Shown piece after piece: positions 1 to 53,600 of a DNA stretch of 64,000 nt. Numbering within the stretch: position 1 is the stretch's first letter; each line of letters opens with the position of its first letter. This DNA is from Phyllobates terribilis (taxonomy: Eukaryota). Below the pieces are notes generated by a model. It was not told where the DNA came from. It was given only the letters and a program-made list of their open reading frames with translations, and did not search any database. The stretch is from the NCBI RefSeq assembly GCF_046119375.1, contig NW_027362764.1:707606001-707670000 (forward strand), written 5' to 3'. The position numbers and the translations under genes were made by a program.

Positions 1-810
1 AGTAAGAGGAAGAAGGAACAGAAACACCAGGAAAGGCCCAGGGACGCAAGAAAAGAGGGAACCCTAAGATCCCACGGAATAACGGGTGAAGGGTTGGCAG
101 AGCAGGGTACTGGATCCCAAACTGGTGGAGGCCAATTATCCTTAGCCAGGAACCAGAGGTCGTGGTCAAGCCTTGGCGCGACCCCTCACCATATCCCCCA
201 GGAAGGCATACCGTATAGGGTCAGGGAAACCGGGAAAGGTTTCGCCACCAGAAGGCCCGAGGGAGCCGGACAAAGGTGGGTCCCTGGTGGGGACGGCCAG
301 TAGGAAGGAAGAGAGGGGAGCTCTGGACCACGCTCTGGAATTGCCTGGGAGTTGGCCGAATCCCTGACCTGGTGGACACAGCATGACTCGGGCGGTCTTG
401 ACTGCGCATAAGGGACCTGATAAAGAACTGTGAGTAAAGCATTGAAAACTGCAGCTGCACGTCTCACTGAGTCCTTGTCGCACTAGCACCATCAGTACCG
501 GGACACTTGCACCATCACTACCACCATCTTCCACACTAGCTGCCCTGAGGCAATACTCCTCCCGTGGGGAGTCATCCCATACTGCGCTGCACAAACAACA
601 TCAGCCTCAGCGGTCTGCAGTGCAGCGGCGGTCCCCACTGACCGCAAACCACGGGTGGCGTAGTCGAACAGTATAAACATTGCCACTTAGTTTGACACCC
701 TGGGCACGGACCGGGTCACCGCCACGAGGACTACTGACCCCAACAGATCCGGCTCCGGGTATTCCCCGCGTGCGCAACGCTACATACAACATGGCCCAGG
801 GGGCGCGTCA
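1..810 (+). repeat. 5' LTR (partial)
   Basis: Direct repeat of 3801-4591; ends GGCGCGTCA just before the PBS. Confidence 0.9.
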
Positions 811-814
811 ACTT

Positions 815-832
815 TGGCGTAGTCGGCAGGAT
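815..832 (+). promoter_or_regulatory. Primer-binding site, tRNA-Ser
   Basis: TGGCGTAGTCGGCAGGAT is the reverse complement of the 3' end of vertebrate tRNA-Ser (...ATCCTGCCGACTACGCCA, from recalled sequence); 4 nt after the LTR end. Confidence 0.85.
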
Positions 833-1168
833 CCCGTGCCCGCAACCATCGGGTACTGCGTGCCTGAAGAAAAGCTCATATATACCTCAAAAAGAAGTCT
901 CCCGCCAATTCCAGAGGATTCCCGCCATCGGACCCCATCTGGGGTCGTTTCCCGCCGTTTGCCCGTCATCTGCAGCCTTTGCCCGCCATCTGCGGAGTTT
1001 CCCGCCATCAGGGGACGATTCCCGCCATCTTGGACAGTTTCCCGCCCTGGCAGAGCGGACGCCATTGTGGGCGTGCCAGAGGGTGGCAAGGGGCCACCTC
1101 CCATCGTGGGCATGGCCCCAGAGTGGCGCCAAAGGAGGGGACCGCCCCCACCAGCCGAGACTACAATC

Positions 1169-2701
1169 ATGGAGATGTCCATCAAAGTGGGGGGTCTGCC
1201 CCTGAAACTGAATGTCACTAAGTTGCCCCGGGACCACTCCCAATGGGGGCGGATAGGGAACAAAACGGAGAGGATGGGTGCGGCCTGGAGGAGTCTGGAC
1301 AGATCGCACCCGGGAATGGAGGAAGCGCCCAGCGATGCCGGCACCTCGGTCCGGAGCCTGCTGCAGGCCGCAACGCCAGGCAGCCTAGTGGAGATCCTGG
1401 CACAGCTCCCCAGAGATCCGGAGCGTGCACAGGCTGCGCTGGAGGACTTGGACCGGAGGATGGCCCGGGCACAGCAGGATGCGCTGGCCGAGTGGAAAAG
1501 GGAGATGGCCCGGCAGGCTGGGATCCGCCAGCAGGAGGCGCCACCCGCAACGAGGAACATGTTCACCTCTGAGGATGGTGCAGGAAGGACGAAGGCCGGA
1601 GACGACGCCGCGGAGGGAGCTGCATGGATGGAAGCAGGTAATGGGGACGTCATTACCCCGAGCCCAGTAGCCGCAAGCCTGCCCCAGCTCCCCGTCGCAG
1701 AGCCCGAAGTCCTACTCACCGCGCCCGTTGCCGCGCCGCCACTGCTCCCAACTAGGCCTCAAGCGGCAGGAGCCGCGGTCACGCCCTCATCCGCGCCACG
1801 CCCCTTGACCCTGAGCGCGGCGAAACAGGAAGTGCCACCGGCCTGGTCGCAAGGCCTAGTGAACCCGGGCGCCGCTGCCCCTACAGCGCCCTCCTCCTCA
1901 ATGGTGCCATCCCCAGTACAGAATAGAATTCCCCCGGCCTGGTCGCAAGGCAGAGTACCCCCGGGCGCTGCCGTCCCTACGGCGCCCTCAACCTCCACAG
2001 TGCCACTCCTGGGCGCAGATCTTTGTGCACAACATACCAGCCCGGACGGGCTGCCCTTCGTGTGGCCACCGGAATACGTCAACCTCCGACTCCGGAAGGA
2101 ACGGCCCCTGTGTGAGCCTCTGATCCCGGCTCCGGAGCCCGCCAAAATAGCTCCGATCCCGTTAGAGGACGCCCAATTTGAATGGGATCCGACCGGTGAG
2201 AACCTCATGGGGTTCACCCAGGAGACCCGGGCGGATGCAGCCCGGCGTGAGGAGTGCTGCCGTCAACAGCTGGAGGTCTTTGGAAGAGAACGGCGAGAGA
2301 GGCGGATCCGTGAGGAACAGCTGCAGGCCCGGGGCGCGGAACAGAAGCGCAGGGCCCGACAAGACCCCCGAACAGCCCACGGTCCCCGCACCGACGGGAC
2401 CATAATAAAGTTCCAGCTAGAGCATGGCTGGGGCTTTATCCGAGACCATCGAACACCCGGCGACGTCTTTGTCACCCGCAGGGATGTCGAGAGCCACCTG
2501 CCGGAGGGACACCGCGGACGTGATCTCTACCCGGGTGATGTGGTCACCTTCACCCGGCACAAGGGTGCCAAAGGACCATACGCCCTCCACGTTCACAGGC
2601 TCACGGAGGAGGAGCTACAGTACCACCAAGAAACAGAGTACACCGAGGGTCCGGACAGATCTGAAGACTACCCGGAAGAACAAAGAGGACACCGTTATTA
2701 G
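1169..2701 (+). CDS. Gag-position protein: helical N-terminus, Pro/Ala-rich linker, R/E-rich coiled segment, C-terminal cold-shock domain
   Basis: Open frame 680-2701; best Kozak ATG at 1169 (upstream in-frame ATGs at 791 and 1112); CSD at about 2393-2601 with GTIIKF..GWGFI (RNP1), DVFVT (RNP2) and L.PGDVVTF...GAKGPYALHV. Confidence 0.75.
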   Translation: MEMSIKVGGLPLKLNVTKLPRDHSQWGRIGNKTERMGAAWRSLDRSHPGMEEAPSDAGTSVRSLLQAATPGSLVEILAQLPRDPERAQAALEDLDRRMARAQQDALAEWKREMARQAGIRQQEAPPATRNMFTSEDGAGRTKAGDDAAEGAAWMEAGNGDVITPSPVAASLPQLPVAEPEVLLTAPVAAPPLLPTRPQAAGAAVTPSSAPRPLTLSAAKQEVPPAWSQGLVNPGAAAPTAPSSSMVPSPVQNRIPPAWSQGRVPPGAAVPTAPSTSTVPLLGADLCAQHTSPDGLPFVWPPEYVNLRLRKERPLCEPLIPAPEPAKIAPIPLEDAQFEWDPTGENLMGFTQETRADAARREECCRQQLEVFGRERRERRIREEQLQARGAEQKRRARQDPRTAHGPRTDGTIIKFQLEHGWGFIRDHRTPGDVFVTRRDVESHLPEGHRGRDLYPGDVVTFTRHKGAKGPYALHVHRLTEEELQYHQETEYTEGPDRSEDYPEEQRGHRY

Positions 2702-3315
2702 AGAATGGTAAAGAAGGACTGTACATAGTTACCCGTCGGGGTACAAGAACCATTACTAGATTGAAGTGTGGTCCCCGTTGGGACTGGTGTGGAACTGTTA
2801 AAGAACTGTTACCTGTGTGCCCCTTATCCCTAACCAGGCTGAGGACTGTGAGCAGCCATTCCTCTATTCCCACTGGCCGAGGACTGAGAGCGGCCATACC
2901 CTTGTAAATAGTTGCGCTTCTTAAAGCGCCCCCTATTGGTTTTATAAGAACTGCCTTTCTACCTTGGAAGTAGTGACTGTTGCACTTTACCTGGTCGCAA
3001 GTTGCACCATGGCCAGAAGATCAAGAATATGTTTTGAAAATGTTTGTGTGAAAATGTCTTATAATGGAAGTTTAATATGCTGCTAAAATAATAACGCCAA
3101 AAGTTTTTATATAGTGTTTTACAAAAGAGTTCCGGTGGCACTAGTAGAATGTTTTATAAAAATGTTTTATACCAGTAACGTTAAGAAGAAAAGAGTACCT
3201 CCCATAAAGGGATGAGTTCATAGTTAATGTCTTATATGCGAGTGCACTTTAAAAATAATTGTATGTTTAAAATGTTTTTATTCTATTCCAGCCCGAGGAT
3301 GTGCTGTGGTTTACC

Positions 3316-3324
3316 AGGGGGGAA
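3316..3324 (+). promoter_or_regulatory. Polypurine tract
   Basis: AGGGGGGAA directly before TGTAGC at the 3' LTR start. Confidence 0.75.
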
Positions 3325-4591
3325 TGTAGCACCCCGAGGACTCGGCTGCTACAGGGGTATTGCACCTCGAACCAGAGGTGTGGTATTCCACTCCCGGGTA
3401 AGGATGGAGTGTGGAACGGGGCTCAGTTAGCTGCATACACTACACTCACCCCATTTCCGGGAGACAGATCAACGGTACTCCCACCAGATAGATGTGCAGG
3501 TACGACAGCGTCTGTCCCTGCCTGGAGTGGGGAGGGGGGAGGAATATCCCAGTGGTGTAGGAGCAGACAGGGGAGGGACTCTGGGCATAGGTAGGAGCCC
3601 ATTGGGTGCTGGTCACCTGGGCTCGGGTGTCAGAAGGGAGTATATAAGGTGGGCACCATGATAGAACAAGAGGAGAAGAGGAGAGGAGAGGTGCAGAGGA
3701 GTGCAGTCTGAGAGAGTTCAGCCAGAGAGGGCTGACAGGGAGCTGTGGCTCAGTCCGGGCCCAGCTCCAGAGCCAGGCCTGAAGCAGAGAGAGAGAGAGA
3801 AGTAAGAGGAAGAAGGAACAGAAACACCAGGAAAGGCCCAGGGACGCAAGAAAAGAGGGAACCCTAAGATCCCACGGAATAACGGGTGAAGGGTTGGCAG
3901 AGCAGGGTACCGGATCCCAAACTGGTGGAGGCCAATTATCCTTAGCCAGGAACCGGAGGTCGTGGTCAAGCCTTGGCGCGACCCCTCACCATATCCCCCA
4001 GGAAGGCATACCGTATAGGGTCAGGGAAACCGGGAAAGGTTTCGCCACCAGAAGGCCCGAGGGAGCCGGACAAAGGTGGGTCCCTGGTGGGGACGGCCAG
4101 TAGGAAGGAAGAGAGGGGAGCTCTGGACCACGCTCTGGAATTGCCTGGGAGTTGGCCGAATCCCTGACCTGGTGGACACAGCATGACTCGGGCGGTCTTG
4201 ACTGCGCATAAGGGACCTGATAAAGAACTGTGAGTAAAGCATTGAAAACTGCAGCTGCACATCTCACTGAGTCCTTGTCGCACTAGCACCATCAGTACCG
4301 GGACACTTGCACCATCACTACCACCATCTTCCACACTAGCTGCCCTGAGGCAATACTCCTCCCGTGGGGAGTCATCCCATACTGCGCTGCACAAACAACA
4401 TCAGCCTCAGCGGTCTGCAGTGCAGCGGCGGTCCCCACTGACCGCAAACCACGGGTGGCGTAGTCGAACAGTATAAACATTGCCACTTAGTTTGACACCC
4501 TGGGCACGGACCGGGTCACCGCCACGAGGACTACCACCCCCAACAGATCCGGCTCCGGGTATTCCCCAAACATGGCCCAGGGGGCGCGTCA
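3325..4591 (+). repeat. 3' LTR (about 1267 bp)
   Basis: Starts TGTAGC after the PPT; contains TATATAA near 3641; its distal 790 bp match 1-810. Confidence 0.85.
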
Positions 4592-4853
4592 CATGCACGG
4601 GTTGTCACGGCTCCAAGCCCTGAGTACCGTGGTCTTTCAATGCGGATCACGCCTCGCTTTCACTGGGCAGTTGAAGGCAGACGCGTCATCCAGCACGTGA
4701 CCACTGGTCACAGGACTCATTTCCTGGATGCCGCCTCAATCTACGCATGCGCCATTGGCTCCACGCTGACAGCATCATCTTTTCATCTCCGCCTACTATC
4801 CCCTCATTGGCTTTTTGCTATATAAAAAACACGCACACCCCTCAGTTTGACAC

Positions 4854-29010: not shown

Positions 29011-32000
29011 TGTTATGTTCTGCTACCAGAGCTAAGGAAAGAGAGGAGATCTGTCCCTACGATAGAACTCAGCTGAATCCCTACGATGTAACAGGGGACC
29101 TGATCCTGCGATCAGACCTGCTAAAGTCCTAAGCTAGTCTGTACGGAGACCTATAGATGTGGGGATGGAATCCCTACAAGTACTAAGGACTGGGAGGAAA
29201 ATGGACACCTCCTAACAGAAATAGTAGCAGACAGACGAACAAACAAAATATATAGAACATAGAGGTCCGTAGACCAAGCAAACTAACAGAGTTGGATACA
29301 GAGCACAGGCTAGCTAGAAAGTAGTAATACAATGAAGTCCAGCAAAGCCAGAAGGGCGGAGCAGGATTAAATAGGCCAACAAGGTCATGTGACCAGCAAA
29401 GGAAAAAACCTAAGAGCAAGGTTCTAACAGTACCCCCCCTTCTAAGAGGATCCTCCGGATCCCCTAGGACCAGGCTTATCGGGAAATCTCCTGTGAAACG
29501 CTCTGATAAGTCTGGATGCGGAAACATCATCTGACCTCACCCAAGAGTTATCCTCGGGTCCGAAACCTTTCCAGGCCACAAGATACTGCAAACTACCTCT
29601 ATACCGTCTAGAGTTAAGGATGCGAGAAATTTCATATTCCCCGTCCTCCACCACCGGAGGAACAGAGGCAGAGGCGTCACCATCCGACACAACAGCTTTT
29701 TTTAACAGAGAGACATGAAATACCGGATTAATTCTCCAGGAGGTAGGAACCTCCAACCTAACAGCAGATTGGTTGACAACCTGAAGCACCTTAAAGGGCC
29801 CTACAAACTTGGGACCCAATTTCTTAGAAGGAATCCTCAACCGCAGATTCCTAGAGGACAACCAAACCATGTCACCAACAGCGAACAAAACCTCCTGTCG
29901 TTTCCTATCAAAGTAGTCTTTAGATTTTCTGTTGGCCTCCTGAAGATTACCACGCACATCCGTCCAAACTCTCTCCAAATCACCGGAAAAATTCTCCTCC
30001 TCAGGCACGGCAGATCCCAACTTGGAGAACGACCCAAACGACGGATGTCTCCCAGAACAACAAAAAAAAGGCGAACAACCAGCAGAAGAAGATGTATGAT
30101 TGTTCAGAGCAAATTCAGCAAGTGGCAGAAACTCAGACCACCCCTCTTGATTGTCTGCCACAAAACAACGCAAGAACTGCTCAACATCCTGGTTTTTCCT
30201 TTCTGTCTGGCCATTAGATTCAGGATGATATCCGGACGAGAACGATAAATGAACTCCCAACCTGTCACAAAAGGCACGCCAAAAACGAGCCACGAACTGA
30301 GGACCCCTATCAGAAACAATGTCAGTAGGAACGCCATGAAGTCTGACAATTTCCTTGACAAAGGCCTTAGCGAGAGTTTTAGCGCAGGGCAGTTTGACGA
30401 AGGGAACCAAGTGACACATCTTGCTAAAACGGTCCACGACCACCCAGATGACAGTAAAACCCTCAGAGGGGGGAAGGTCAGTTATAAAGTCCATAGCCAA
30501 ATGTGTCCAAGGAGCACTGGGAACCTCCAAAGGACAAAGCAACCCCGCAGCAGGAGTATGTGAGGACTTAGATCTAGCACATATAGTACATTGACGCACC
30601 CACTTAATGACTTCCTTCTGCCATCCAGGCCACCAAAAACTGCGACCCACCAGTCTCTTGGTCTCAGAGATTCCGGGATGACCTGCCAACCGAGATTCGT
30701 GACACTCAACAAACAAATCTCTCCTAAAGGTCCCAGGCACAAACAACCTCCCATGAGGAGTGTTAGATGGGGCATTCTCCTGTGCTTTAAGAATCTCATC
30801 TTCCAAAACGGAGTCCAAAGCAGCTATCACAACACCTTCTTGTAAAATGTTCTCCTCTTTCTCAGCACCGACTATGGGAGAAAAACTGCGAGACAAGGCA
30901 TCCGCCTTAACATTCTTAGTACCAGGGATGTAAGTAACGGAGAAATTAAACCGCGAGAAAAACAGTGCCCACCTAGCCTGACGGGCATTCAGGCGCTTGG
31001 CAGCATCAAGATATATCAGATTTTTATGATCCGTAAGAACCTGAACGGGAAATTCCGCACCTTCCAAGAAGTGGCGCCAGTGTTCAAATGCGAGTTTAAT
31101 AGCCAATAATTCCCGATTACCAATATCGTAATTCAGTTCAGTCTCCGAAAATTTTTTTGAAAAAAAAGCACAGGGATGTAATCCATCCCCGTTATCCTGA
31201 GACAATACTGCGCCAACCCCCACAGAGGAAGCATCAACCTCAACCAAAAACGGCTTAGTCACATCAGGCTGCATAAGGATGGGAGCAGAGGTGAACCTCT
31301 CCTTGAGATACACAAAAGCTTCAATAGCCTCAGAAGACCACTGAACCGCATCAGCACCTTTCCTGGTGAGATCGGTCAGAGGTTTGACAATACTAGAAAA
31401 ATTTTTTATGAATTTTCTGTAATAATTGGCGAAACCTAAAAACCTCTGGATCGATTTCAAACCAATAGGCCTAGGCCATTCCTGTACAGCTTGAACTTTA
31501 ACCGGGTCCATCTCAAAACCTTCGCTGGAGATAATGTAACCCAAAAAACTAATTCTCTGTACAGCGAACTCACATTTCTCCAGCTTAGCAAAAAGCGAAT
31601 TGTCCATTAACAACTGTAATACCTCACGTACGCTCCGCCAATGAGACTCCAGATCCGGCGAATAAATCAAAATGTCATCCAAATACACAACCACATTTTT
31701 GCCGATCAAAGGTCTAAGGATGTCATTAATAAGATTCTGAAAAAATGCAGGAGCATTGGTAAGACCAAAAGGCATCACCAGATTCTCAAAATGACCCACA
31801 GGAGTGTTAAAAGCAGTCTTCCATTCATCACCCTCCTTCATGCGCAACAGATTGTATGCCCCCTTAAGGTCAATTTTAGAGAACCACTTGGCCCCCATTA
31901 ACTGGTTAAATAAATCAGGAATCAATGGCAGTGGGTAAGGATTGCGTACAGTAATTTTGTTAATCTCCCGAAAATCCAGACAAGGACGTAAACCGCCGTC

Positions 32001-33976
32001 CTTTTTTTTTACAAAAAAAAATCCAACCGCCACAGGAGACTTAGAAGGCCTAATGTGACCGGCGGCCAAACTTGTCTGTATGTATTCCTCCAAAGCCTTC
32101 CTCTCAGGAATAGTAAGGTTAAATAAACGACTTTTAGGAAGAGTCGCTCCAGGGACAAATTCAATAGAACAATCATAGTCTCTATGGGGAGGCAAAACCT
32201 GCGATTCCTTCTCAGAAAAAACTCTCCAAAAATCCTGAATAGGAACAGGCAATTCTCCCCTATCCAAAGCTGCAATACGCCCGTTACAACACTTGTCATA
32301 ACATTTATGGCTCCAGGATTTAATTTCACTGGTAGACCAATCCAGTACAGGATTGTGAAATTTTAACCAGGGCAATCCCAATATTACTGGAGAAGGCAAG
32401 TTATTCAACACTACCAAATCCAATTTCTCATGGTGAACACCATTAATAGTGAGAGGAAATTCACAGACCTTGAGAGTAATATTCTTCAAAGGGGAACCAT
32501 CCACAGAAACCACAGCAATGGGGGATGATAAAGGTTTGGGTTTTAAATTGAGTCTTTCCAAGAATCCCCCATCAATTACATTCAGAGTAGACCCACAATC
32601 GACAAACACCCGAAATTCCATTAATTTTTCCTGAGCAATCGTGGAAGCAGCTAAAAATACACCCTTGGAATTTAAACAGGCAATACGGGCATGACTGACC
32701 ATTTTTTTTTCTTTCTTCATACGAAGCTCACAGCCTTTAATCAAATGACCAGATTTTCCGCAATAGAAACACAAGCCTTCAAAAAGTCTACGGTCTTTTT
32801 CTTGAGAGCGAGGTGCCACCGATCCAATCTCCATCGGTTCACCACTGTTAGTACACTCATTCTCATAACCAAAAACTGACATAGCAGAGGATTTGCTCTC
32901 ATTAACCCTTGCACGCAGTCTTCTATCCACCCGTATAGCTAATTGCATAGCCTGTTGCAAATCTTCAGGTGTAGGATAAGCAATTAGCAGGTCTTTAACC
33001 CTTTCATTGAGCCCAGCAAGAAATAGACTTTTCAGAGCAGAATCGTTCCACCCTGTTTGAGTAGACCATCGACGGAAATGAGTACAATATTTTTCCACAT
33101 TACCTGATCCCTGTCTCAAACGTCTTAACTCAGTCTCAGCTGATGCGACACGGTCAGGATCATCATATAATAGCCCCAAAGCAGAAAAAAAACTATCCAC
33201 TGATCTGAAGCATGTATCACTAGTTTGCAAAGAAAAGGCCCACTCCTGAGGCTCTTTGCGCAAAAGTGACATTATGAACCCTATGCGCTGGGATTCATCC
33301 CCAGAGGACTTGGGTCTCAAACGAAAATATAATAAGCAAGCATTTTTAAATGAAAAAAATTCTCGGTGTTCACCAAAAAATAAATCCGGCAAACATACCT
33401 TAGGCTCCAAGAAATGTGCTCCAGGACAGTTACTCACGTGCTGACGGAGCTCGGCCACCTCCAGAGAGAGTCCCTGCAGGCGATGAGCCAAATCCTGAAC
33501 CGACACCATGATGGAACAGAAAAATCTTTCCTTAGAGAATTTGCAGGCTGGACTTACTGTTATGTTCTGCTACCAGAGCTAAGGAAAGAGAGGAGATCTG
33601 TCCCTACGATAGAACTCAGCTGAATCCCTACGATGTAACAGGGGACCTGATCCTGCGATCAGACCTGCTAAAGTCCTAAGCTAGTCTGTACGGAGACCTA
33701 TAGATGTGGGGATGGAATCCCTACAAGTACTAAGGACTGGGAGGAAAATGGACACCTCCTAACAGAAATAGTAGCAGACAGACGAACAAACAAAATATAT
33801 AGAACATAGAGGTCCGTAGACCAAGCAAACTAACAGAGTTGGATACAGAGCACAGGCTAGCTAGAAAGTAGTAATACAATGAAGTCCAGCAAAGCCAGAA
33901 GGGCGGAGCAGGATTAAATAGGCCAACAAGGTCATGTGACCAGCAAAGGAAAAAACCTAAGAGCAAGGTTCTAACA
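29011..33976 (-). mobile_element. Intact full-length Gypsy chromovirus inserted antisense in the gag of its relative
   Basis: 419-bp LTRs 29011-29429 and 33558-33976 with no difference seen; perfect 5-bp TSD CTGTA; PPT next to 29430. Confidence 0.96.
29442..33509 (-). CDS. gag-pol: Gag-PR-RT-RNase H-integrase-chromodomain polyprotein (1355 aa)
   Basis: Single ORF: CFYCGKSGHLIKGC, FVDCGS, YLDDIL, VEVDASS, HHCC finger, DFITD/VSDRG/ERKNQ core, GPF motif, YLVAWKGFGPEDNSW. Confidence 0.96.
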   Translation of the reverse strand: MVSVQDLAHRLQGLSLEVAELRQHVSNCPGAHFLEPKVCLPDLFFGEHREFFSFKNACLLYFRLRPKSSGDESQRIGFIMSLLRKEPQEWAFSLQTSDTCFRSVDSFFSALGLLYDDPDRVASAETELRRLRQGSGNVEKYCTHFRRWSTQTGWNDSALKSLFLAGLNERVKDLLIAYPTPEDLQQAMQLAIRVDRRLRARVNESKSSAMSVFGYENECTNSGEPMEIGSVAPRSQEKDRRLFEGLCFYCGKSGHLIKGCELRMKKEKKMVSHARIACLNSKGVFLAASTIAQEKLMEFRVFVDCGSTLNVIDGGFLERLNLKPKPLSSPIAVVSVDGSPLKNITLKVCEFPLTINGVHHEKLDLVVLNNLPSPVILGLPWLKFHNPVLDWSTSEIKSWSHKCYDKCCNGRIAALDRGELPVPIQDFWRVFSEKESQVLPPHRDYDCSIEFVPGATLPKSRLFNLTIPERKALEEYIQTSLAAGHIRPSKSPVAVGFFFVKKKDGGLRPCLDFREINKITVRNPYPLPLIPDLFNQLMGAKWFSKIDLKGAYNLLRMKEGDEWKTAFNTPVGHFENLVMPFGLTNAPAFFQNLINDILRPLIGKNVVVYLDDILIYSPDLESHWRSVREVLQLLMDNSLFAKLEKCEFAVQRISFLGYIISSEGFEMDPVKVQAVQEWPRPIGLKSIQRFLGFANYYRKFIKNFSSIVKPLTDLTRKGADAVQWSSEAIEAFVYLKERFTSAPILMQPDVTKPFLVEVDASSVGVGAVLSQDNGDGLHPCAFFSKKFSETELNYDIGNRELLAIKLAFEHWRHFLEGAEFPVQVLTDHKNLIYLDAAKRLNARQARWALFFSRFNFSVTYIPGTKNVKADALSRSFSPIVGAEKEENILQEGVVIAALDSVLEDEILKAQENAPSNTPHGRLFVPGTFRRDLFVECHESRLAGHPGISETKRLVGRSFWWPGWQKEVIKWVRQCTICARSKSSHTPAAGLLCPLEVPSAPWTHLAMDFITDLPPSEGFTVIWVVVDRFSKMCHLVPFVKLPCAKTLAKAFVKEIVRLHGVPTDIVSDRGPQFVARFWRAFCDRLGVHLSFSSGYHPESNGQTERKNQDVEQFLRCFVADNQEGWSEFLPLAEFALNNHTSSSAGCSPFFCCSGRHPSFGSFSKLGSAVPEEENFSGDLERVWTDVRGNLQEANRKSKDYFDRKRQEVLFAVGDMVWLSSRNLRLRIPSKKLGPKFVGPFKVLQVVNQSAVRLEVPTSWRINPVFHVSLLKKAVVSDGDASASVPPVVEDGEYEISRILNSRRYRGSLQYLVAWKGFGPEDNSWVRSDDVSASRLIRAFHRRFPDKPGPRGSGGSS

Positions 33977-39273: not shown

Positions 39274-39920
39274 GGCAACTGTATACTGACTACTATATGA
39301 ACCAGTTTATGTTGGAGAAATAAAGCATCTATTATTTCATTACCTATATGAGACTTTTTCCATATTATTTGGTGTGCCGGAATCTTTATTTATACCAATG
39401 AAATGAAGTCCTGGAGCCCTAAGTGTTATGACAAGTGTTGTAACGGGCGCATTGCTGCTGTGGATAAAGGGGAATTACCTGTACCTATTCAGGATTTTTG
39501 GAAAGTTTTTTCTGAGGAGGAGTCGCAAATTTTGCCTCCCCATAGAGACTACGATTGTACCAATTTGTCCCTGGAGCGACTCTTCCTAAAAGTCGTTTAT
39601 TTAATCTGACTATTCCTGAGAGAAAGGCTTTGGAGGAATACATACAGACGAGCTTGGCCGCCGGTCATATCAGACCCTCTAAGTCACCTGTGGCGGTTGG
39701 ATTTTTTTTTGTTAAAAAAAAGGACGGCGGTTTACGTCCTTGTTTGGACTTTCGCGAGATTAATAAAATTACTGTACGCAATCCTTACTCACTGCCATTG
39801 ATTCCTGATTTGTTTAACCAGTTAGTGGGGGCCAAGTGGTTCTCTAAAATTGATCTCATACAATTTGTTGCGCATGAAGGAGGGTGATGAATGGAAGACT
39901 GCTTTTAACACTCCTGTGGG

Positions 39921-40882
39921 ACCTTCAGAGGGATTTGGATAAGCTGGGTAGGTGGAGCATTAAATGGCAAATGAGGTTTAACGAGGAGAAATGTAAGGTC
40001 ATACATATGGGAAGGAAAAATGGAAGTCACCAGTACTCACTGAATGGGAAATCATTGGGGAATTCAGAGATGGAGAAGGACTTGGGCATCTTGATTGATA
40101 GCAAACTAAATTGGAGTGCCCAAAGTCAGGCCGCTGCTGTAAGGGCAAACAGGGTAATGGGATGTATCAGAAGAGGTATAGCTGCAAAGGATGAGAACAT
40201 TGTTCTTCCACTGTACAAAGCACTGGTCAGACCACACTTGGAATACTGTGCTCAGTTATGGGCCCCAATATATAGAAAGGATATAAATGAGCTTGAAAAG
40301 GTACAAAGGAGGGCAACAAAATTAATAAAGGGAATGGAGGGACTGCAATACCCAGAGAGGTTGGCAAAACTAGGACTATTCAGCCTGGAAAAGAGAAGGT
40401 TGAGGGGGGACATAATAAATGTGTACAAATATGTTAGGGGACAGTATAGAGACCTTGCCCGGGATTTGTTCAAAAGGACGGATATTACGGTAACAAGAGG
40501 GCACTCACTAAGACTGGAAGAGAAAAGGTTTCAGCACCAGCATAGGAAGGGGTTCTTTACGGTAAGAGCAGTGAGAATATGGAATTCACTGAGTGAGGAG
40601 ACGGTAATGTCGGATTCACTACACCAGTTCAAGCGGGGACTGGATGCTTTTCTAGATACCAGGCAGATTTCTGCATATACTTAAAAATAGAATAAAATAG
40701 TAGGTTGATACAGGGATTTATTCTGACTGCTGGTTTCAGAGTCGGGAGGGAATTTTTCCTCAGGTGAAGATTGGCTAAATCATTTGGGGTTTTTGCCCTC
40801 CTCTGGATCAACTTTAGCAACTACAGAACTTACAGGTCGAACTTGATGGACGCAAGTCTTTATTCGGCTTTACAAACTATGT
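39921..40882 (+). mobile_element. 5'-truncated CR1 LINE inserted in the outer RT
   Basis: [42 protein letters not shown], stop at 40684; 3' end ACTATGT; host NTPVG|HFENL resumes after it; no clear TSD. Confidence 0.9.
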
Positions 40883-43236
40883 GTCATTTTGAGAATTTGG
40901 TTATGCCTTTTGGTCTTACCAATGCACCAGCATTTTTTCAGAATCTTATTAATGACATCCTTAGACCTTTGATCGGCAAAAATGTGGTTGTGTATTTGGA
41001 TGACATTTTGATTTATTCGCCTGACCTGGAGTCTCATTGGCGGAGCATACGTGAGGTATAGCAGTTATTGATTGACAATTCGCATTTTGCTAAGCTGGAG
41101 AAATGTGAGTTCACTGTACAGAGAATTAGTTTTTTGGGCTACATTATCTCCAGCGAGGGCTTTGAGATGGACCCGGTGAAAGTGCAAGCTGTGCAGGAAT
41201 GGCCTAGGCCTATTGGTTTGAAATCGATACAGAGGTTTTTGAGTTTCGCCAATTATTACAGAAAATTCATTAAAAAATTTTCTATTATTGTTAAACCACT
41301 GACCGATCTCACCAGGAAAGGTTCTAATACGGTTCAGTGGACTACTGAGGCCATTGAAGCTTTTGTGTTTCTAAAGGAGAGGTTCAGCTCTGCCCCCATC
41401 CTTATACAGCCTGATGTGACTAAGCCGTTTTTGGTTGAGGTTGATGCTTCTTCTGTGGGGGTCGGTGCGGTGTTGTCTCAGGAAAACAAGGATGGAGTAC
41501 ATCCCTGTGACTTTTTTTCTGAGACTGAACTTAATTACGATATTGGTAATCGGGAATTGCTGGCTATTAAACTCGCATTTGAACACTGGCGTCATCTCTT
41601 GGAAGGTGCTGATTTTCCCATTCAGGTTTTCACTGATCATAAAAATCTGATCTATCTTGATGCTGCCAAGCGCTTGAATGCCCGTCAGGCTAGGTGGGCA
41701 CTTTTTTTTTCGCGGTTTAATTTTTCTGTTACTTACATCCCGGGTACCAAGAATGTTAAACCTGATGCTTTGTCTCGCAGCTTTTCTCCCATGGTCGGTG
41801 CCGAGGAGGAGGAGAGCATTTTACAAGAAGATGTTGTGATTGCTGCATTGGACTCCGTTTTGGAAGATGAGATTCTTAAAGCCCAGGAGGATGCCCCATC
41901 TAACACTCCCCATGGGAGGTTGTTTGTGCCTAGGACCTTTAGGAGAGATTTGTTTGTTGAGTGTCATGAGTCTCGGTTGGCAGGTCATCCTGGAATTTCT
42001 GAGACCAAGAGACTTGTGGGTCGCAGTTTTTGGTGGCCTGGATGGCAGAAGGAGGTCATTAAGTGGGTGCGTCAATGTACTGTGTGTGCTAGATCTAAGT
42101 CTTCACATGCTCCTGCTGCGGGGTTGCTTTGCCCTCTGGAGGTTCCTAGTGCACCTTGGACACATCAGGCTATGAACTTTATTACTGACCTTCCCCTCTC
42201 TGAGGGTTTCACGGTCATCTGGGTGGTCGTGGACTGTTTTAGCAAGATGTGTCACTTGGTTCCCTTCATCAAACTGCCCTGCGCTAAGACACTCGCTAAG
42301 GCCTTTGTCAAGGAGATTGTCAGACTCCATGGTGTTCCTACTGACATTGTTTCTGATAGGGGACCTCAGTTCGTGGCTCATTTTTGGCGTGCCTTTTGTG
42401 ACGGGTTGGGAGTTCATTTGTCATTTTCATCTGGATATCATCCTGAGTCTAATGGCCAGACAGAAAGGAAGAACCAGGATGTTGAGCAGTTCTTGCGTTG
42501 TTTTGTGGCAGACAATCAAGAGGGGTGGTCTGAGTTTCTGCCGCTTGCTGAATTTGCTCTTAACAACCATACATCCTCTTCTGCTGGTTGTTCGCCTTTT
42601 TTTTGGTGTTCTGGGAGACATCCGTCTTTTGGGTCATTCTCCAAATTGGTATCGGCTGTGCCTGAGGAGGAGAGTTTTTCCGGTGATTTGGAAAGAGTTT
42701 GGACGGATGTGCGTGGTAATCTTCAGGAGGCTAACAAAAAATCTAAGAGGTACTTTGACAGGAAACGTCGAGAGGTTTTGTTTACGGTTGGTGACATGGT
42801 TTGGTTGTCCTCTAAGAATCTGCGGTTGAGGATTCCTTCTAAAAAATTGGGTCCCAAGTTTGTAGGGCCCTTTAAGGTGCTTCAGGTAGTTAACCAATCT
42901 GCTGTTAGGTTGGAGGTTCCTACCTCCTGGAAGATTAATCCGGTGTTTCATGTTTCTCTATTGAAAAAAGCTTATGTATCAGATAGAGACGCCACTGCCA
43001 CTGTTCCTCCGGTGGTGGAGGACGGGGAATATGAAATTTCCCGCAACCTTAATTCTAGACGGTATAGAAGGAGTTTGCAGTATCTCGTCGCTTGGAAGGG
43101 TTTCGGTCCCGAGGATAACTCATGGGTGAGGGCAGATGATGTTTCTGCTTCCAGACTTGTCAGAGCGTTTCACAAGAGGTTTCCTGATAAGCCTGGGCCT
43201 AGGGGATCCGGAGGATCCTCATAGAAGAGGGGGTAC

Positions 43237-49410: not shown

Positions 49411-52400
49411 ATGGACAAAATGGAGGAGCTGTTAAGACAATTGGTCCTCACGCAGCAGCAGAAGCAGCTCTCACGCAGCGGCAGCAGCAGAAGCAGTTCA
49501 AGAAGCAGCAGCACACCAATGAGCTGATCGTGCAGCAGCTCACAGCCCTGCGGGAGACGCCGACGGCACCAGCCCCGGAATTTCGAGAAGCCCGGGACAA
49601 GGTTCGCTCAGCATTGAGGAAGATGGGACCGGAGGACAACGTGGAAGCCTTCCTGACCATTTATAAGCACACAGCAGAACAGGAAAACCTACCAGCCGGC
49701 CAGTGGGCAGAAGTGGTGGCTCCGTTTCTGGTCGGCGATGCCCAAAAGGCCTACTTCGACCTCAGTCGGGAGGACGCCCAGGAATACCAGAGGCTCAAAG
49801 GTGAGATCCTTGTCCGACTGTGGGTCAATACATACGTGAGGGCTCAGCGTGTATTTTCATGGGCCTATGTGGAGACCCGAGCTGCCCGATCTCAGGCTTA
49901 TGACCTTTCGCAGCTAGTAAAGAGGTGGCTCCAGCCTGAGTCTTCAACTCCAGCCCAGATGGTGGAGAGGGTGGTGGTCGACCGGCTGGTGAGGCCTCTG
50001 CTGGCAGATATCCAACGTTGGGTGGGGCAAGGGGACCCCGGCACCCTCGACCAGGTGGTCAGCCTGATCAAGAACTACTTGGCCACTCAGGACTTTATCC
50101 GAGACTCTTCCCCCTCGCGGCTGTCACGCCGATCCCTGCCAACCCAGGAAATGGGAAAGGGGTGGCGTCCCTCTGCTGAGGACAGTCAGCACCGTACCCG
50201 TGCTGAAGGGGTACCCCGGAGTGAGAGTGGCAGGAGAAAGGTTCCTTCCCAAACAGTTATAAGACCTAACAGTACCTCCACCATTAGGTGCTGGCGGTGT
50301 CAGGGGCCGGGACATGTGGTTGCTAACTGCCCCCTGACTACGGAAAGCATGGACTGCGGGTATAACCGCCGGGTCTCAATGTACGCCCAGACCGTCTGCA
50401 CTGCGAGTGCCGACCCCTCGGACAGCGAACCCTAACTGTGCCAGGTACTGGTTAATGGGTACCCCACGGAGGCCCTCCTAGACTCGGGGAGCCTAGTGAC
50501 TTTGGTACATGGGTCGCTGGTGGCAGGAAACAACCCCAGTGGACGGACAGTCGGGGTTGTGTGTATCCATGGGGTCCTCCGAGAGTACTCAACCGAGGAG
50601 GTAGTTTTGTCCACGCCATGTGGAGACATAAAACATGTGGTGGGGGTGGTAAAAACTCTTCCCTATGGGACTGTGTTGGGAAGAGACTTGCCCCTGTTCT
50701 GGACTCTGTGAGAAAACAAAATCCACTCTCCCCTGGTAAAATTTGTTACAGGCGCTGTACCCGACGAACCCGAGTCAGGGGTACCTGCCGTAGTGGTGTC
50801 CAACCTAGGGACAGAGTGTGACCCCGATAGGTCTCCCATAGAGATGCTGGCAGGAGAGGTCGAGGAGACCCCATCGATCCACGAGCTGGAAGTGTCCCGG
50901 GGCACGTTTGGGACAGCTCAGCTACAGGATCCCACTCTGACTTGGCCGTGGGAAAGGGTGTTAGAGGTAAATGGCGTAGCTCAACAGCCCGGTGCAGATA
51001 CTGTATTTCCACGCATGGTAGTCAATGGTGAGTTGCTCTATAGGGTAGACAAAATCAGGGACGAGGTCGTGGAACAGTTAGTGGTACCGTCGGGTGGTTC
51101 TGGAGTTGGCACACACACACCTGCTGGGTGGACACTTAGGGGTTAAAAAGACGCAAGTGCGTATCTTGCTGCGGTTCTTTTGGCCAGGGATTTACGTGGA
51201 GGTCCAAAAATACTACGAATCCAGCCCTGAATGTCAGTTGACCACACCCACCGCAAGTTTCCTTAGCCCATTGGTACCCCTGCCAGTGATAGAGGTACCT
51301 TTTGAACGGATTGCAATGGACTTGGTAGGGCCCATTTTAAAATGCGCTCGTGGCCACCAACATATACTGGTGGTCGTCGACTATGCCACCCGGTACCCAG
51401 AGGCTATACCGCTACGCCACACCTCGGCGAAACTGATTGCACGGGAGCTGTTTGCCATGTTCTGTCACCTTGGACTACCTAAGAAGATCCTGACGAATCA
51501 AGGGACGTCTTTTATGTCCAAGGTGACAAGGGAATTGTGCAAACTGCTAAAAATTAAACAATTGCGCACCTTGGTGTACCCCCTCAAACCGACAGACTAG
51601 TGGAACGGTTCAATAAATCCCTCAAGTCCATGTTAAAAAAGGTGGTTTCTAAGGACGGAAGGGATTGGGGCATGTTGCTACCCTATTTGATGCTCGCCAT
51701 CCGTGAGGTACCCCAAGCTTCCACAGGGTTCTCTCCCTTTGAGTTATTGTACGGCAGACACCCTAGGGGTCTGTTGGACGTAGCCAAAGAGACATGGGAA
51801 CAAGAGTCGACTCCACATAGGAGTATAATTGAACACGTAGCTAGTATGCAGGACCGGATTGTGGCGGTCATGCCCATCATAAAAGAACATCTGCTGGATG
51901 CCCAGGCAGCACAGAGGCGCACATATAATAAAAGAGCCACGGTCAGGTCTTTTAACAGGGGTGATCTGGTGTTAGCACTGGTACCCACAGCCGAGAGTAA
52001 GCTCATGGCCAAGTGGCAAGGGCCATATGAGGTTCGAGAAAAGGTGGGGGAGGTAAATTACCTGGTGTATCAGCCCGGAAGGAGGAAACCTGAGCAGCTT
52101 TATCATGTAAATCTGCTAAAACCTTGGAAAGATCGAGAGTGTTTAGTTACAGACGTCACTCTGGGCATATCGCCAGAGAGTTCTCTACCTTCAGCCAGGG
52201 ATGCGTCCGGGGGAGAGGTCAGGATAAGTGATGATCTCACTAAACAGCAGCGACGGGAGGCTCGCTCGCTGGTGCAGCAGAATACCGACGTGTTCTCAGA
52301 GCTACCGGGTAGGACTACAGTTCTCCAACATGACATTGTCACCGAACCTGGGGTAAGGGTGCGAATGAGACCGTACCGGGTACCTGAAGCCCGGAGGCAA

Positions 52401-53600
52401 GCCATCACGGCTGAGGTAAAACAAATGCTCCAGTTAGGCGTCATAGAGGAATCACAGAGTGAGTGGGCTAGCCCCATCGTACTGATTCCAAAACCAGACG
52501 GATCGTTACGCTTCTGTAACGATTTCCGGAAATTAAATGAAGTGTCGAAGTTTGACCTTTATCCAATGCCCAGGGTGGATGAGCTGATTGAGAGACTGGG
52601 GCAGGCCCAGTACTTTACCACGCTCGATCTCACCAAGGGTTACTGACAGATACTTCTCACGAAATCGGCGAAGGAAAAGACTGCCTTCATAACTCCGGAG
52701 GGTCTATATCACTATGTGGTCTTACCTTTTGGGTTACATGGGGCCCCGGCTACATTCCAGAGGTTGATGGACATAGTGCTCAAGCCTCATTAGGAGTACG
52801 CGTATCTAGATGATATTATGATCTATAGCACTGACTGGCATACGCATCTATCCCAAGTACAAGTGGTGCTGGATTCTCTCAGAGCCGTGGGGTTAACGGC
52901 AAACCCAAAAAAATGTGCGATAGGGCTAGAGGAAGCCCGATATTTGGGGTATGTGATTGGCCAAGGAGTTATCAAGCCCCAAATCAATAAAGTTGAGGCA
53001 ATAAAAAACTGGCCTAAACCGTCAAGTACAAAGCAGGTGAAGGCGTTCCTTGGCATCCTTGGGCATTACCGCTGGTTTATACCTAATTTTGCTGGGAGAA
53101 CAGTGGCCCTGACCGATCTCTTCAAAGGAAAAAAATCGGTAATGGTTCAGTGGAACCCTCAGGAAGAAGAAGCTTTTCAGTCTATGAAGTTGGCCCTGTG
53201 TGGACTGCCGGTCCTCATCAGTCCCAACTTCAAGGAAACCTTCATTGTACAGACAGATGCCTCGGAGGTAGGCCCAGGAGCGGTATTGTCACAAAAAGTG
53301 AATGGTGAAGAGCACCCGGTCACCTACTTGAGTAGAAAACTTGTCCCGGCAGAGAAAAACTATAGCGTGGTAGAGAAAGAGTGTTTGGCTATTAAGTGGG
53401 CCTTGGAATCACTACGTTATTATTTACTCAGGTGTCAGTTCCGCTTGGTGACGACCACTCACCCTTGGTATGGATGAGGAATGCGCGAGTCACCAGGTGG
53501 TTCCTGTCAATGCAAAATTTCAGTTTCTCAGTAGAACATCGCCCTGGGAAGTCGCAGGCAAACGTGGATGCCCTGTCCCGGGCACCCTGTATGGTGTCAA
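49411..53600 (+). pseudogene. gag-pol: Gmr1-type gag-pol with stops and frameshifts
   Basis: SCAN-like capsid, CWRCQGPGHVVANC, LLDSGS protease, integrase (DYATRYPEA, ERFN) at about 51094-52150, then RT (FCNDFRKLN, YLDDI) and RNase H (QTDASE). Confidence 0.88.

Follow-up and report, generated by a model that had tools for sequence, protein, structure and literature searches.

The window analyzed here, a 64,000-nucleotide stretch of the genome of the frog Phyllobates terribilis (contig NW_027362764.1, positions 707,606,001 to 707,670,000), opens with a recent, intact copy of a long terminal repeat (LTR) retrotransposon that has neither pol nor gag (Table 1). Its single open reading frame (ORF) encodes a protein that ends in a cold-shock domain (CSD); the element is very probably a satellite, or passenger, of a class of Ty3/gypsy retrotransposons that we refer to as the helper. 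The two LTRs have TG...CA ends, show 11 mismatches over 1265 aligned positions (99.13% identity) in addition to a 19-nt indel near the end of their 5'-unique segment (U5), and are bordered on both sides by the target-site duplication (TSD) CATG. A primer-binding site (PBS), which is the sole match for the primer site within the window, and a polypurine tract (PPT) complete the element. A first-pass annotation, made from the sequence alone, had described near-identical LTRs, a tRNA-Ser PBS, a PPT, and an uninterrupted ORF of at least 510 aa, all of which hold. Counted from stop to stop, the frame (677–2701) spans 674 aa and includes in-frame ATG codons at 791, 1112, 1169, and 1175.

Three genomic copies (L151, L152, and L153) have an over-long PBS in which ~45–55 nt of the 3' half of the tRNA have been copied, apparently because plus-strand synthesis ran on beyond its usual stop. 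In one of these the copied part reaches a TGA anticodon, consistent with tRNA-Ser(UGA), and ARAGORN finds no tRNA gene at the three loci. The leader downstream of the PBS is likely the packaging region. Folding of the U5–PBS RNA gives a weak signal (z of −2.1), and Rfam has no match across positions 1–4700 of the window. We also observe a PBS-like motif, GGTGGCGTAGTC, that sits ~160 nt 5' of the PBS and is kept in helper and passenger, and an AT-rich 3' untranslated region with repeated AAAATGT motifs (3030–3290).

Table 1. Features of the CSD element, in window coordinates.
Feature	Position	Strand	Remarks
5' LTR	474 bases before window start to 810 (1284 bp; in-window part 1..810)	+	compared with 3' LTR
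PBS-like motif GGTGGCGTAGTC inside U5	654..665, again 4454..4465	+	in 31/32 aligned CSD and helper elements
Primer-binding site, tRNA-Ser	815..832	+	
Leader	833..1010	+	first ~200 internal nt 70–78% alike to helper leaders
Single ORF	1169..2701	+	510 aa if begun at ATG 1169; no stop in frame from 677 onward
N-terminal helical segment (predicted)	1340..1528	+	dN/dS 0.39, without Gag similarity
Pro/Ala/Ser/Thr-rich region, predicted disordered	1547..2158	+	PPAWSQG repeats of variable number
Predicted long charged helix, either a coiled coil or a single alpha-helix	2210..2374	+	dN/dS 0.10
Cold-shock domain	2393..2596	+	Y-box-length loop, Pfam PF00313, dN/dS 0.10–0.11
Polypurine tract, form as in helper elements	3316..3324	+	directly 5' of 3' LTR
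3' LTR	3325..4591 (1267 bp)	+	TATA-like motif 3641, AGTAAA 4233
Target-site duplication CATG	4592..4595	+	also at 5' side of element

The cold-shock domain protein

A search of the full ORF against Pfam returns a single family at E ≤ 1, the CSD (PF00313; ORF residues 573–640, 31.1 bits against a cut-off of 27). This confirms the clear CSD that had been read from the sequence and, as had also been claimed, no CCHC knuckle, protease (PR), reverse transcriptase (RT), or integrase (IN) is among the matches. The protein starts with short helices, followed by ~200 residues rich in Pro, Ala, Ser, and Thr, a charged helix of 55 residues, and the CSD, and it closes with an acidic tail. The CSD is modeled as a five-stranded barrel (pLDDT of 82) that resembles the structures of CspA and YB-1, with a TM-score of 0.88 to CspA by target length. 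A profile built from 11 element-type CSDs matches YB-1 and YB-2 best (51.5–53.6 bits, next entry 43.4), and the long loop of the domain has the Y-box length proposed for it earlier; the CSDs of a second element family (family C, described below) and of Bufo align to YBX without gaps. A search with a single CSD sequence and a fold search both rank bacterial cold-shock proteins first, and a CSD tree (70 columns, 40 rows) does not place YBX as the sister group. The CSD of the host Y-box gene is split over four exons, whereas that of the element is contiguous and free of introns, as expected for capture from an mRNA. We consider a Y-box origin of the domain probable.

The RNA contacts of YB-1 are W65, F74, F85, H87, and K118 (PMC7498358). 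The element CSD, which is ~30% identical to that of YBX1/YBX2 (FRGY1/2), keeps F74, F85, and a Lys or Arg at position 118, has W65 and H87 replaced, and carries aromatic residues at positions 72 and 121 (E121 to Tyr); it further differs from the Y-box proteins in the long helix ahead of it. Based on these residues, binding of nucleic acid with a changed specificity is plausible. A genome-wide Pfam CSD search recovers the elements and CSDE1 retrocopies, and no YBX retrocopy is present among the 15 loci read. The CSDE1 (UNR)-like retrocopies (L200–L205) are intronless and partly duplicated, and one continues into sequence resembling a long interspersed nuclear element.

Although the ORF is in the gag position, sequence comparison indicates that it is not a Gag derivative. 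It has no Pfam Gag match, its comparison with the helper Gag gives a BLASTP E-value of 0.19 and an HHalign probability of 0.1%, and HHalign detects no similarity of the N-terminal and helix alignments to the helper Gag or to the integrase C-terminus. In the ESM Atlas, the whole protein leads to CSD clusters below 0.9 only and residues 1–130 lead to nothing. Fold searches with the full-length model, which is of low confidence (mean pLDDT of 46), give no meaningful match, and the predicted oligomer of three copies of the helix and CSD scores 0.04. The first-pass annotation was correct on the location of the ORF; kinship with Gag does not follow from it.

Family size and selection on the ORF

The genome assembly searched comprises 10.6 Gb. 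Searching with a degenerate form of the RRDVESHLP motif yields 22,719 exact matches, compared with 0 when the pattern is reversed as a control, and the exact PBS sequence occurs 69,769 times; at ~5 kb per motif match, the family without its solo LTRs occupies ~110 Mb or ~1% of the assembly. In a protein search, the 150 candidates scored out of 42,545 are all 92–100% identical and seven have an internal stop, figures that are biased because these are the best-scoring ones. We extracted 80 PBS sites together with long flanks; all lie in the first 14 Mb of a single contig and are not a random sample. Gag-pol follows at 45 of them and the CSD family at 31, and four are unclassified. Within the 31 CSD-family copies, 22 have an ORF of at least 500 aa, four are broken, and five are without the helix and CSD. 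Boundaries were resolved for 65 elements in the 80 loci; with one intermediate element excluded, a 4-bp TSD flanks 43 of the 48 short elements and all 16 long elements, and the median LTR identity is 99.5% and 99.4%, respectively. Given these TSDs and the high LTR identity in both classes, the CSD family and the helper have both been active recently. The dispersed copies, each with its own TSD, also agree with the earlier proposal of a non-autonomous multicopy family, as opposed to a single copy.

The CSD and the helix that precedes it are under strong purifying selection. We computed the ratio of nonsynonymous to synonymous change (dN/dS) from pairwise counts among related copies, and its intervals are optimistic. 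Across 14 diverged ORFs, dN/dS is 0.10 (0.05–0.15) in the long helix and 0.11 (0.06–0.18) in the CSD; the N-terminal and Pro-rich parts have values of 0.39–0.51 and the U5/leader frame 0.82 (0.64–1.08). The CSD value is 0.08 when CpG codons are left out (24 ORFs), three CSD sets range from 0.08 to 0.21 with every interval below 0.35, and the helper RT has a dN/dS of 0.04. Synonymous sites vary freely within the CSD motif. The family has thus kept its CSD protein, as the first-pass annotation supposed, and the ORF is not in neutral decay. A translation start at the ATG at 791, within U5, is not favored because this codon is lost in some subfamilies, the leader frame has the dN/dS of 0.82 given above, and helpers likewise have that frame open. 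A set of 38 near copies (one partial locus left out) includes 17 that scored intact, or 18 with L030 (ORF of 663 aa); no net frameshift is shared among them, and the large indels found are all in frame.

The helper class and other CSD lineages

The helper gag has a PNMA-like match (below the cut-off) and an intact zf-CCHC, and the helper pol is ordered PR, RT, RNase H, and IN. This order identifies the helper as Ty3/gypsy and not Gmr1, a clade that is defined by an integrase placed before RT (PMC4131045); PNMA has been reported in Cer and Gmr elements (PMC4131045). What helper and CSD family have in common is limited to the LTR start TGTRRCACCC and the final ~300 bp of the LTR, the PPT, the PBS, and a leader stretch of ~200 nt. 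The similarity of the 3' LTR to helper LTRs starts only at about 4250–4320 and runs to the LTR end; since this is just after the AGTAAA (LTR position 909), the shared part is most likely U5. We therefore find the pol-bearing partner with matching LTR end and PBS that the first-pass annotation had anticipated. Simple deletion from the helper does not account for the passenger, as the 3'-unique segment (U3) and the rest of the interior are not collinear.

In a tree of U5/PBS sequences, 16 CSD elements and 16 helper elements are interleaved, and monophyly of the CSD elements is rejected by the approximately unbiased test (p-AU of 1e-5). A chimeric element (L053, 2562–6878; LTR identity of 98.7%, 4-bp TSD) is composed of a CSD-type U3-R, a helper leader (95–99%), and gag codons 1–68 followed by the helix–CSD half; the join is in frame at a 6-nt microhomology, and an open 212-aa fusion is encoded. 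A second gag/CSD join (L175), now decayed, belongs to an older lineage. The established route to such chimeras is template switching when a particle holds two RNAs, with gene conversion in the genome as the alternative. The two chimeras point to co-packaging, and U5 is exchanged between the two classes. Among 93 long loci with a CSD match, no element has both a CSD ORF and pol; nine have same-strand gag or pol matches, which lie outside the element in eight and represent the L053 chimera in one. These comparisons indicate that the passenger uses the cis signals of the helper class and recombines with it, and the helper enzymes likely mobilize the CSD family. Elsewhere in the window are gypsy pol remnants at 29844–32063 (−), 39660–42822 (+), and 51088–53587 (+), which are 25–47% identical to the helper pol and are not the helper.

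An older, decayed CSD lineage (~55% identity over the region compared) has a different PBS, TGGCGTCACGAACAGGAT, with 8,117 matches; of 30 sampled, five belong to the CSD family and 24 to gag-pol. Family C (L188:4248–6341 (−), L185–L199, L215–L244) is likewise pol-less and shares the tRNA-Ser PBS, with unrelated LTRs (TGTAATAG...TTACA) and a different, Arg-rich N-terminus. It has 515 junction matches, a CSD in 27 of 30 loci, and a CSD dN/dS of 0.19–0.21. In Ranitomeya variabilis, R. imitator, Anomaloglossus baeobatrachus, and Bufo bufo, the annotation includes related CSD proteins, which are presumably elements as well. All 29 element-type rows of the CSD tree group together (94/91), joined by a single long-branch bacterial row; with 70 columns only, this grouping is compatible with, and not proof of, one old CSD capture. 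Further diverged CSD ORFs are present at L184, L191, L197, and L210, two of them close to the Ranitomeya and Bufo proteins, in settings where the LTR structure is partial or ambiguous.

Possible functions and comparison with known elements

We hypothesize that the CSD protein is a cis-preferring RNA-binding factor that would escort or protect its own RNA, and we assign this reading a probability of about 0.45. The simplest route for selection on a transposon gene across subfamilies is through how successfully its encoding RNA is copied, which is why we choose a cis-preferring factor; the indel pattern of the near copies, with no shared net frameshift, is a hint in the same direction. The element would be transcribed from its own U3 and its ORF translated, and the CSD protein would bind the RNA that encodes it, with a preference in cis, either protecting this RNA or escorting it into a helper particle. 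The passenger RNA carries helper-type U5, PBS, leader, and PPT, and the Ty3/gypsy helper likely packages, reverse-transcribes, and integrates it. Our working analogy is LINE-1 ORF1p, a cis-preferring RNA chaperone composed of a disordered region, a long helix, and an RNA-binding domain; it differs in having an RRM-CTD and not a CSD, and in belonging to an autonomous non-LTR element.

Several observations weigh against this hypothesis. Given the replacement of W65 and H87, RNA binding by the CSD is not assured. A CpG-codon nonsense change is common to two copies, and pN/pS does not differ significantly between private and shared changes (0.49 vs 0.23, p = 0.34). The five sampled copies that are without the helix and CSD (L093, L098, L110, L259, and L293) result from independent deletions, each with its own breakpoints, that all remove roughly the helix–CSD segment. 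LTRs are resolved in four of them and are 99.8% identical in L093 and L110; RNAs of this kind can apparently be copied without making the protein, and the derivatives argue against a strict need for it. One such deletion joint, from 2050 to 2510, is found, at a depth similar to that of its flanks, in contigs from three of four sequencing runs, which are of uncertain kind and may be DNA; the contigs cover all 30 bins of the element. The mosaicism of U5 could instead stem from gene conversion in the genome, and no partner with a matching LTR end was found for family C among 30 loci.

A rather less likely role lies in translation or RNA stability, with the protein competing against masking by FRGY2/YBX2 or against RNA decay, such that the element RNA would last or be translated in oocytes and embryos, and not in packaging. 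Y-box proteins carry a tail of alternating basic and acidic stretches that is absent from the element protein, and the two replaced contacts also speak against such mimicry. The acidic tail, the charged helix, and the preference of the profile for the YB-1 and YB-2 CSDs fit it, as do the masking of transcripts by FRGY2 in frog oocytes (PMC7825780) and the high gypsy expression in ova of Oophaga pumilio (PMC6278860). We consider it unlikely that the protein acts in trans, blunting host silencing or aiding the whole group with the helper included. The retention of the CSD in families with unrelated LTRs and the presence of CSD-less derivatives, one perhaps amplified, would be in keeping with this; however, broken copies should then exploit the product, yet the full ORF is retained in 22 of the 31 sampled copies and lesions are nearly all private to single copies. 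Interference, in which the protein would bind or block helper RNA and thereby leave the helper particles to the passenger RNA, seems improbable: the passenger makes up 31 of the 76 classified PBS sites and its leaders diverge from those of the helper after ~200 nt, which would permit discrimination, but the helpers are equally young and give no sign of suppression.

The first-pass annotation considered the CSD as a nucleocapsid substitute in a Gag-like protein, which its place in the gag position and its terminal nucleic-acid-binding fold might suggest. We regard this as very improbable because the ORF has no similarity to capsid or Gag and the helper Gag has a CCHC of its own; in addition, ~200 residues at the expected place of a capsid are predicted to be disordered. 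A very remote capsid fold may lie in the N-terminus, where the model is of low confidence. That the ORF is neutral cargo without function is scarcely credible, even though LTR elements commonly capture pieces of host mRNA (PMC12287698), given the dN/dS of all three CSD sets and the synonymous variation in the CSD motif, which argues against constraint at the RNA level as the source of the signal.

In the largely open-access literature searched, we found no report of a gag-less and pol-less LTR family with a selected CSD protein as its sole gene; an unpublished entry in a repeat library is possible. The soybean SNARE elements, said to have been described by Du et al. in 2010, are reportedly an autonomous/non-autonomous LTR pair. 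The plant pairs Dasheng/RIRE2 and BARE2 resemble the frog system in high passenger copy number, shared helper cis signals, and LTR swapping, but unlike for the CSD family, a conserved host-derived RNA-binding protein is not mentioned in the available portion of that account (PMC4079214). Xenopus 1A11, Xretpos, and lambda-olt 2-1 likewise come from an amphibian and are LTR elements that lack pol and have a single long ORF (PMC4585706). The description of 1A11 as Gag-like, with no helper named, sets the CSD family apart, and the term "cold shock" is absent from the available text on these elements (PMC4585706). BHIKHARI Bik-1 and Bik-2 of zebrafish are also non-autonomous LTR families of young age that have one intact ORF and need pol in trans, but this ORF encodes a Gag that includes a capsid domain and the families are lokiretroviruses, whereas the frog ORF is without Gag similarity and its partner is Ty3/gypsy (PMC12067270). 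Finally, captured CSDs, proposed to be adaptive, are found in 46 RT-classified bird endogenous retroviruses (ERVs), through several separate captures at varying positions (PMC12287698). E-values of 1e-24 to 1e-26 in two supplementary rows of that study, compared with 2e-7 for the frog CSD, indicate that the latter is far more diverged from the Pfam model; in the frog, a single diverged lineage of CSDs provides the only gene of pol-less elements with >22,000 copies, in contrast to the RT-bearing bird ERVs (PMC12287698). The earlier claim of an undescribed architecture thus stands for the combination and not for its parts, as CSD capture (PMC12287698) and pol-less elements (PMC4585706, PMC12067270) have been published.

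More tentatively than for the role of the protein itself, we suggest that frogs may harbor a class of satellite retrotransposons without gag and pol in which a host-derived, re-tuned Y-box CSD protein would select its own RNA for the particle of a helper, and that one ancient capture may have spread over unrelated LTR lineages and several frog families. Whereas known non-autonomous LTR elements are non-coding or keep Gag, this element has as its only gene one other than gag or pol. The C-terminal half of the encoded protein comes close to the helper RT in its conservation, indicating that an accessory protein can benefit the passenger that encodes it. For genome annotation, copies of the element are labeled as host genes, such as "Y-box-binding protein 2-A-like" in Bufo, or are fused into gene models; in the public annotation, fragments are fused into host or transposase gene models in P0003, P0004, P0074, P0126, and P0127. 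The family contributes to the giant genome of this frog and lends itself to the study of how helper and passenger compete for particles and how a fold that packages germline mRNA is put to selfish ends.

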